A DNA stretch of 27,666 nucleotides from an uncultured Candidatus Saccharibacteria bacterium (GTDB lineage Bacteria > Patescibacteriota > Minisyncoccia > Phycocordibacterales > UBA918): NCBI GenBank assembly GCA_964442205.1, contig CAYTYF010000002.1:19336-47001 (forward strand). Reading direction: 5' to 3'. The stretch's first letter is position 1; each line of letters begins with the position of its first letter. Positions 24,976 to 25,172 of the stretch are shown one piece after another. Below the pieces are notes generated by a model that was given only the letters and a program-made list of their open reading frames with translations, made no database searches and was not told the DNA's origin. Made by a program: the position numbers and the translations under genes.

Positions 24976-25172
24976 GGCGGCTACCGGGAATCGTCCCGCT
25001 TTTTCTAAACCCACTACGCTCGTTAAGAACGCTGGACGCGACTCACCTGTTTTGGCATTAGGAATAGCCGAAACATGGCTCCGCCGTTCGATTCCCGACG
25101 CAAGTGACATTGGTCACTTGCTGTAGCCGCCCACATACAAAAAACTCCCGAAGGAGTTTGTTGTATGTGGGC
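24976..25172. mobile_element. tRNA-3'-end-associated structured element, tRNA-His-matched copy 1
   Basis: Direct repeat 24976-24993 is 18/18 identical to tRNA-His 27613-27630. Inverted copy GTTCGATTCCCG[AC GCAAGTGAC ATTG GTCACTTGC T]GTAGCCGCCC at 25086-25132. Spacer hairpin runs to 25172. Confidence 0.85.

Follow-up and report, generated by a model that had tools for sequence, protein, structure and literature searches.

The window, as the whole 27,666-nucleotide stretch of DNA analysed here is called, spans positions 19336–47001 of contig C2 in a 0.93-Mb genome of 76 contigs. It holds four inverted, plus-strand copies of the 3′ end of a cognate tRNA (positions 54–73), one for tRNA-Arg, one for tRNA-Val and two for tRNA-His (His1 and His2), and each of these copies is split by a short insert. 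The first-pass annotation had described the inserts as hairpins of constant geometry, and a reading of the sequence confirms all four: each consists of (A/C)C, a 9-bp stem closed by a loop of 3–4 nt, and a T, and every pair in the four stems is Watson–Crick, with no mismatch. The His1 copy begins with a distal arm (arm5, 24976–24993, plus strand), which was read from the sequence, by comparison with tRNA-His 54–73, as an antisense direct repeat of tRNA-His positions 73–56. This arm is followed by a type A core (24994–25086, plus strand; TCCCGCTTTTTCTAAAC..., with a GGCATTAGGAATAGCC loop), which was delimited by alignment and by its nhmmer copies in the genome, and then by arm3a (25087–25097, plus strand), a sense copy of tRNA positions 54–64. 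The insert itself (25098–25122, plus strand) is made up of AC (25098–25099), the two stem strands (25100–25108 and 25113–25121), the loop ATTG and a T (25122). Arm3b (25123–25131, plus strand), a sense copy of tRNA positions 65–73, resumes the tRNA sequence, and the copy closes with a terminator hairpin termed T1 (25132–25172), which has a terminator score on both strands and ends in the 5-nt stub TGGGC, equivalent to the antisense end of tRNA-His. In His2, arm5, core and arm3a occupy 25907–26029 on the plus strand (arm5, 25907–25924; arm3a, 26018–26029, tRNA positions 54–65). They are followed by the insert (26030–26054, plus strand; AC 26030–26031, stem 26032–26040/26045–26053, loop GCAG, T 26054) and by arm3b and a terminator hairpin with stub (26055–26100), where arm3b (26055–26063) has 1–2 mismatches to the tRNA.

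The Arg and Val copies are built in the same way. Arm3 of the Arg copy (4053–4096, plus strand) is composed of tRNA positions 54–64 (4053–4063), the insert (4064–4087, plus strand; AC 4064–4065, stem 4066–4074/4078–4086, loop GAG, T 4087) and positions 65–73 (4088–4096). Its terminator hairpin (4097–4143) ends in the 8-nt stub GTGCCCCC, and the same 8 nt flank a 6.6-kb cargo at tRNA-Arg (10771–10778). In arm3 of the Val copy (11712–11756, plus strand), positions 54–64 (11712–11722) and 65–73 (11748–11756) enclose the insert (11723–11747, plus strand; AC 11723–11724, stem 11725–11733/11738–11746, loop GCAG, T 11747), and the terminator hairpin T1 (11757–11801) directly adjoins tRNA-Val(TAC) (11802–11875, minus strand). 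No strand is assigned to the four terminator hairpins. Relative to the cognate tRNAs, the Arg, Val and His1 inserts come after position 64 and that of His2 after position 65, a shift of one tRNA position from His1, as had been noted. An unbroken inverted copy of tRNA-Leu 54–73 with 2 mismatches is also present (13845–13865, minus strand); this arm3 without a hairpin is a natural hairpin-less control.

The two His copies share 121 of the 122 nt upstream of the hairpin foot, in agreement with the earlier count, and are only ~70% alike downstream of it, through the terminator. The divergence between them is therefore not confined to the hairpin, and their contrast is a mosaic break at the hairpin foot, where identity falls from >99% to ~70%. 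Two smaller features lie nearby. At 24985–24998 and 25916–25929, a small hairpin with a T run behind it bridges the end of arm5 and the start of the core; on the plus strand it resembles a terminator, and it is particular to the His arm sequence. In addition, the reading frame of a 52-codon GNAT-like fragment (25781–25939) crosses the His2 arm5 and ends within the core, at a TAA.

The window copies share their organization with a family of gene-less modules of 150–250 nt that sit behind tRNA and tmRNA genes, tail to tail with them, and consist of arm5, a folded core, arm3 and a terminator hairpin. A profile search together with a hairpin scan places ~18–21 copies in this genome, nearly all of them convergent with a tRNA gene and just behind it; in most copies, the convergent tRNA is 11–60 nt away. 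Arm5, an antisense direct repeat of tRNA positions 73–56, reaches 1–2 nt into the gene flank and has no CCA. This 18-nt repeat of positions 56–73 is recognizable, at up to 4 mismatches, in 55 of 119 copies, and it is perfect in 16 of them. Arm3, the sense copy of positions 54–73, carries the hairpin, which divides it at the boundary between T stem and acceptor stem into parts of 11–12 nt and 8–9 nt. T1 hairpins score as terminators on both strands and either abut the tRNA 3′ end or, when cargo follows, close with a 5–8-nt stub of the tRNA end. Several core types exist, and one core family serves at least 20 tRNA identities. A promoter scan revealed no sigma-70-like site upstream of the modules. 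The cores (for example, window 24994–25086 and loci L161, L171 and L215) share a helix with covarying pairs, two direct CTAAG motifs on either side of a hairpin with a conserved ~11-nt loop, YCACTWCGYTC, and a C-rich linker; a second hairpin is optional and variable, and the core stems are likewise almost free of G–U pairs. Three core types have an in-frame TAA 12 nt past arm5, which does not hold for all cores; the idea that CTAAG provides an in-frame stop for an open reading frame crossing arm5 holds for those three types and was set aside as a general explanation.

To avoid circularity, the geometry of the insert was measured with a search that was blind to the hairpin: the sequence following each tRNA of the fetched loci was examined for positions 54–73 in inverted form, with any insert of 0–45 nt allowed. 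This search yielded 128 inverted copies of tRNA ends. The insert is 25 nt long in 96 of these copies and 24–27 nt long in 19 more, and five have an insert of no or one base; ~4% of modules are hairpin-less. The stem starts 13 nt after T54 in 61 copies and 14 nt after it in 50, and the insert is thus located after tRNA position 64 or 65, at the T-stem/acceptor-stem boundary or one base before it. The flanking nucleotides are similarly constrained, with a 5′ linker of AC (72%) or CC (16%), a T on the 3′ side (94%), and a loop that is 4 nt long in 95% of the hairpin-blind copies and reads GCAG in ~70%. Random insert length and position, the outcome named in advance as speaking against a constant geometry, did not occur among the 128 copies.

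Within these fixed dimensions, the sequence of the stem changes while its pairing is kept. In ~2 Mb, comprising this genome and the fetched loci, 193–195 perfect 9/9 hairpins were found in module context, with ~12 further stems that have one mismatch; shuffled sequence contained no perfect stem, which puts the hairpins well outside chance expectation. An alignment of 105 copies was fitted to a covariance model, and 98.8% of its stem cells pair, all nine pairs covary, and 316 stem cells have changed on both sides. None of 500 shuffles reached the observed score, and no slid register came close. The hairpin-blind set gives an agreeing picture (671 of 693 stem pairs Watson–Crick), and 90 copies that were not chosen by their hairpin contain 57 different stems with a mean difference of 4.9 of 9 pairs. 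The variation is not evenly distributed along the stem: G, A, A and G prevail at positions 1, 3, 4 and 5 (77–90% of copies), and positions 2 and 6–9 vary, so that the stem base G-N-A-A-G is conserved in sequence, as is the GCAG loop. The collection of many copies that had been proposed as a check on stem length and covariation was carried out, with shuffles as the comparison, and both were seen: the pairing and length of the stem are kept as its sequence changes, its position is constant, and all nine pairs covary. Covariation restricted to Watson–Crick pairs calls for caution, however, as compensatory change by itself is no proof of an RNA structure.

Not every helix of the module is kept in this way. 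The helix between arm5 and arm3 has 13–19% mismatches that are random in type, and arm5 is entirely lost in about half of the copies. Among copies in which arm5 is lost, 97.9% of the hairpin positions are paired. A stem that remains ~98% paired where the distal arm has decayed beyond recognition must be actively maintained, and the hairpin, kept in old copies as well, is a genuine structural part of the insertion module. Arm3, meanwhile, stays close to the tRNA, with at most 2 mismatches in 20 nt in 31 of 46 copies that were chosen regardless of arm3. Since arm5:arm3 pairing decays and arm3 does not drift from the tRNA, the junction that is kept uses the 3′ end of the tRNA gene itself. A conserved three-way junction, formed by arm3a with antisense tRNA 64–54, the hairpin, and arm3b with the terminator, is plausible. 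In the Val copy, the plus strand folds as single-stranded DNA into such a structure, in which arm3a pairs with the end of tRNA-Val(TAC), the hairpin protrudes and arm3b joins the terminator (z = −9.6). A read-through tRNA-Val transcript forms the same junction in folding at the expense of the tRNA fold, and both strands of the module fold far better than shuffles. The three-way junction that had been proposed is thus retained as plausible, with a different partner from the distal arm, which decays with random mismatches: the maintained one is the tRNA gene 3′ end across the terminator.

The kind of pairing in the stem bears on the strand and the nucleic acid in which it is read. G–U pairs occur in 1 of 926 stem cells of the 105-copy alignment. 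They make up 4 of 693 stem pairs in the hairpin-blind set, compared with 75 of 1995 (3.8%) in the acceptor stems of tRNAs at the same loci (p = 2.5e-6), and they are also rarer in the 9-bp hairpin than in the adjacent terminator hairpins. In the terminator hairpins of 112 loci, G–U pairs amount to 2.5% on the tRNA-sense strand versus 0.75% on the other strand, which corresponds to 41 versus 12 on the module strand, a 3.4-fold excess (p = 8e-5). This excess indicates that the terminator behaves like an RNA helix of the tRNA strand, as expected for hairpins that terminate tRNA transcription. The 9-bp hairpin does not show this terminator-like behaviour; its single mismatches, read on the plus strand, are A–C in seven cases and G–T in two, which leans toward G–U on the tRNA strand and is not significant. 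The stem is either read as DNA or kept perfect by a process that operates on DNA, such as quasipalindrome mutagenesis, in which template switching during replication corrects imperfect inverted repeats (PMC7202029).

The modules are widespread within the order and patchy beyond it. Matches to a covariance model built on the stretch from the T-loop to arm3 were obtained in 36 of 41 genomes of the same order (~300 matches), and stricter filters left the module in 3 of 150 genomes of an even, phylum-wide sample. The exact 24-nt hairpin CGCAAGCAAAGCAGTTTGCTTGCT is present in at least 119 species-level genomes from Saccharibacteria, Paceibacteria, many other groups of Patescibacteria and several Elusimicrobia MAGs. 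Nearly all of the listed exact matches have a T-loop-like sequence before the hairpin and an acceptor strand after it, and they face different tRNAs. This patchy occurrence with identical hairpins in distant lineages points to horizontal spread. Turnover is fast: the modules that congeneric genomes carry at one and the same tRNA are non-orthologous and differ in core, hairpin and terminator. Tandem arrays with cargo occur, such as the His array. The suggestion that a new hairpin is written at each insertion event is not supported by these data, since the same 24 nt stand beside different tRNAs in at least 119 genomes, the stem base G-N-A-A-G and the GCAG loop are conserved in sequence, and the difference between His1 and His2 is part of a mosaic break that continues through the terminator.

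The modules and their hairpin are absent from Rfam 15 and from the literature that was searched. At the gathering threshold, only tRNAs in the window match Rfam 15. In eight loci from other lineages, examined with E values of up to 0.1, the convincing matches are tRNAs and group I introns only; the remaining low scores lie far below the gathering scores, and none corresponds to the module family. No published description of the module or the hairpin was found in the searchable full-text literature. In viral contigs, the exact hairpin has no match and a degenerate pattern matches one contig. This IMG/VR contig (L312, 10417–10453, minus strand) is the only one of the viral collection with a module-like arm; it has Ser-type arms, a hairpin with a GCAG loop and a terminator, and there is no tRNA within 11 kb. 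The group I intron matches are located beside tRNA genes on Kaiserbacteria/Parcubacteria contigs (L140, 2360–2602; L199, 1773–2017); there, the arms around the hairpin correspond to tRNA tip and trailer rather than to positions 54–73.

A search for an enzyme that could move the modules covered several candidates and linked no recombinase to them. The genome encodes one tyrosine recombinase (contig C46), several large serine recombinases, two Y1 genes and one Y2 fragment. No gene family recurs beside 119 module loci, where housekeeping genes only are found. A reverse transcriptase, either tRNA-primed or retron-like, was rejected, as the genome has no RVT_1 domain and arm5 lacks CCA; an IS110/bridge-RNA system was rejected for want of a DEDD transposase in the genome. 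Neither a Y1 (RAYT/IS200) transposase nor a Y2 (IS91) transposase, which was suggested by a GTTC target, correlates with the modules across the 41 genomes. Y1 is absent from several nearly complete genomes that have 7–16 modules and present in three genomes that have none. The Y1 genes of this genome (IS200/RAYT-like; C22:11229–11582 and C23:3270–3491) have counterparts in 26 of the 41 related genomes, and Y1 genes common in this order have unusually long open frames of 215–300 aa. Large serine recombinases were likewise rejected as a partner: their presence does not track the modules across the 41 genomes, and their islands are separate insertions.

Several known systems resemble the modules in part. 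Williams, in 2002, reportedly formulated sublocation rules for islands and prophages at tRNA and tmRNA genes, and CIMEs are non-autonomous derivatives of such islands. Like tRNA islands and CIMEs, the modules are found at the tRNA 3′ end, with a direct repeat that extends from the T-loop (position 56) to the tRNA end, restore the tRNA and occur in tandem arrays with cargo. Unlike them, the modules are ~200 nt long, have no integrase in cis or linked in trans, contain an extra inverted copy of the target that is split by a hairpin and a terminator of their own, and use one core family for at least 20 tRNA identities. MITEs differ in that the inverted arms of the module change with the target tRNA and no autonomous partner lies beside the 119 loci. 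The attP site of CTX phage, used by XerCD, is a folded or forked single-stranded site. The integron attC is likewise a folded, single-stranded recombination site (PMC5027507, PMC3053210). The module hairpin resembles both sites in keeping structure over sequence, in its Watson–Crick stems and in having unpaired bases at fixed places (the AC and T linkers around nine covarying pairs, in the comparison with attC). The arrays, such as the His array, are cassette-like, and the module site would also act on one strand. In contrast to attC and CTX attP, the arms of the module are copies of its target, and neither R/L boxes nor dif-like sites are present; as judged by reading the arms, which are tRNA-derived and differ for each tRNA, R″/L″...L′/R′ boxes (RYYYAAC/GTTRRRY) do not occur in them. 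The odd feature of the module is moreover a 9-bp branch, whereas that of attC is its extrahelical bases, and no IntI was recognised.

The REP/REPIN elements with their RAYT (Y1) enzymes and the end hairpins of IS200/IS605 are also short hairpins that are kept by compensatory change and often lie beside terminators, and they are read as single-stranded DNA, as is proposed below for the module. They differ in that the distribution of Y1 (26 of 41 genomes) does not follow that of the modules, and in that the module hairpin is inside a target-matching arm at a position defined by the tRNA. The tRNA-linked repeats and RtT RNA of E. coli are comparable repeated, non-coding modules behind tRNA genes with a piece of the tRNA 3′ end, and have no sequence or Rfam relation to the modules described here. 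The E. coli repeats reportedly lack both an inverted copy and a hairpin. The H/ACA pseudouridylation pocket is a bipartite guide split by a hairpin, and the parvovirus ITR is T-shaped with 9-bp cross arms. Both are alike in geometry only: in the H/ACA pocket, a stem between two short segments that pair with the target creates a three-way junction, and in the ITR a small 9-bp branch stands on a long palindrome. The modules, however, have no H/ACA box, no Cbf5 context and no Rep/HUH link, and, unlike in an H/ACA pocket, the target of a module would be fully paired, with the unpaired bases on the guide side.

The explanation that we favour, and hold tentatively, is that the hairpin is a cis-acting mark, made of folded single-stranded DNA, in the arm with which a tRNA-end insertion module matches its target. 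The hairpin would act while the DNA is single-stranded, either during replication or in a single-stranded intermediate of transfer or insertion. In that state, arm3 would pair with a complementary copy of the tRNA end, and the hairpin would protrude as the third arm of a fixed three-way junction. The protruding arm may mark strand, register and orientation for a putative recombination machinery, much like the corresponding features of attC and CTX-phage attP, and may also interrupt what would otherwise be a single long and perfect palindrome of arm3, terminator and tRNA end. The repetition of the tRNA end in the arms and flank, the non-orthologous modules, their patchiness and the shared hairpin together amount to mobile-like behaviour. 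We infer an action as DNA rather than RNA, a role as a recombination mark and an enzyme that would read it. Several points run counter to this reading. There is no linked recombinase, no excised or single-stranded form came to light, and ~4% of modules have no hairpin. A requirement for folding on both strands could give Watson–Crick-only stems in RNA as well, and RNAs typically show features such as the conserved loop and the internal-loop motifs found in the core.

A role in RNA is possible though doubtful. The module would be transcribed, by read-through from the tRNA or convergently, and the hairpin would form one branch of an RNA three-way junction. This RNA could act as a bipartite antisense (anti 73–65, hairpin, anti 64–54) that clamps the tRNA 3′ half with a geometry like that of an H/ACA pocket, or it could adopt a tRNA-like fold in which the branch departs from the acceptor/T stack where the tRNA body does; either variant would serve precursor surveillance, processing or tRNA mimicry. 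The folding of both strands far beyond shuffles fits such a role, as does the read-through tRNA-Val transcript, which would sequester the tRNA 3′ half in the same junction. The terminator G–U pairs (41 versus 12, p = 8e-5) imply that the tRNA-sense strand takes the form of RNA at least as far as the terminator, and the single mismatches of the hairpin (7 A–C versus 2 G–T) lean the same way without significance. The conserved GCAG loop and paired CUAAG internal-loop motifs of the core, and a branch point at 65/66, the acceptor/T-stem boundary of the tRNA, are also in its favour. Nevertheless, the near absence of G–U (1 of 926) sets the hairpin apart from tRNA and terminator stems at these loci, and the core helices are ~99% Watson–Crick among standard pairs, in a small sample of 20 cores. 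Moreover, the closing helix arm5:arm3 is not maintained, the module lies behind a strong terminator and lacks a promoter-like site, Rfam 15 offers no match, and patchiness with non-orthologous replacement suits selfish DNA better than a housekeeping RNA. Perfect Watson–Crick stems without wobble intermediates would also be expected if the hairpin were inherited from a selfish master copy and had no function in place, with template switching carrying any change in one arm over to the other and so mimicking compensatory change. Mismatches do rise with the distance between partners, from ~1% in the hairpin (4-nt loop) to ~8% for arm3 against the tRNA end (~40 nt) and 13–19% for arm5 against arm3 (~100 nt apart), and the hairpin-less copies are clean, as they should be if the tRNA arm were sometimes the template. 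We nonetheless regard such passive upkeep as unlikely. The 9-bp length, the size and sequence of the loop, both linkers and the stem base (G1, A3, A4 and G5) are conserved alongside free variation at stem positions 2 and 6–9; ~95% of copies, the oldest included, retain a structure that is prone to deletion; and an identical hairpin across phyla implies constraint or active spread.

Two further explanations are less probable. In one, the hairpin is an independent 25-nt mini-insertion into DNA resembling a tRNA end, at a fixed distance from the T-loop sequence; insertions into the tRNA itself would be lethal, which would leave only those in the dispensable inverted copy to be seen. The same 25 nt do stand between tRNA-specific sequences in more than 100 contexts, in combination with several core types; these cores also occur in modules that lack the hairpin; and at a few loci the hairpin lies in arms that match the tRNA trailer and not the tRNA body. 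Yet, a few doubtful contigs aside, every hairpin seen lies in a module-like context, and the more parsimonious account is a hairpin that belonged to the module ancestrally and is erased now and then, which makes a separate insertion improbable. To our knowledge, neither an enzyme nor a precedent for such a mini-insertion exists. In the other, which we consider hardly credible, the hairpin would never be extruded and would instead be a double-stranded palindromic site for binding or crossover, for example by a serine recombinase dimer, with its arms as half-sites. A site of this kind would fit the 22-bp inverted repeat, whose outer half-sites (GNAAG) are conserved and whose centre is asymmetric, and large serine recombinase islands integrate at the same tRNA ends. 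The free inner positions covary perfectly, however, which only pairing within a strand explains and which disfavours the palindromic site; in addition, the presence of serine recombinases does not track the modules, and their islands lie between module terminator and tRNA with 5–8-bp repeats and not at the hairpin.

Alongside the single-stranded DNA mark, the modules as a whole may be regarded, speculatively and with the odds well against it, as nucleic-acid-addressed insertion elements, with a bipartite 11 + 9-nt address, held in register by the hairpin, that guides an enzyme to the T-loop. The bipartite arm would pair with one strand of the tRNA gene end, and the module would be inserted by a putative enzyme, of the host or of other origin. 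If this were true, the scaffold could be retargeted to any tRNA by swapping two arm segments, and it would represent guide-programmed DNA insertion unrelated to CRISPR, OMEGA and bridge-RNA systems, a new route to DNA targeting. As the most sharply defined and best conserved feature of the module, the hairpin offers a natural experimental handle: it could be used to bait a binding protein, be mutated, or serve to probe for intermediates.

Many ultra-small bacteria have modules at about half of their tRNA genes, with gene cassettes and recombinase islands gathering beside them. This abundance, together with the cassettes and islands nearby, makes it likely that the module family shapes gene gain and loss in these reduced genomes. 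The serine recombinase islands are located between the terminator stub of the module and the tRNA and are bounded by 5–8-bp repeats at the tRNA tip, and the recombinase genes overlap the 3′ ends of tRNA genes. Examples include a complete 13.8-kb Asn island in genome G004 and a His island in genome G001. These islands are a second, separate kind of insertion at the same hotspot. Upstream of the window, a large serine recombinase gene (G000:C2:12574–13902) runs convergently into a tRNA gene, and large serine recombinases likewise run into tRNAs at loci L263, L264, L269, L270, L276, L284, L285, L288 and L289; the last codons of such recombinases are the antisense of the tRNA 3′ end, with ~13 residues derived from tRNA-Asn at L276. 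In the window, cargo blocks are bounded by 5–8-bp direct repeats of the tRNA tip at 4136–4143/10771–10778 and 25165–25172/25907–25912 (GTGCCCCC for Arg and TGGGC/GGGC for His), a junction that differs from the 18-nt repeat of the modules. The cargo of the Arg island consists of a radical SAM protein, a Nudix protein, an NDK and two methylases, and the His cassettes carry an ASCH protein and a GNAT fragment.
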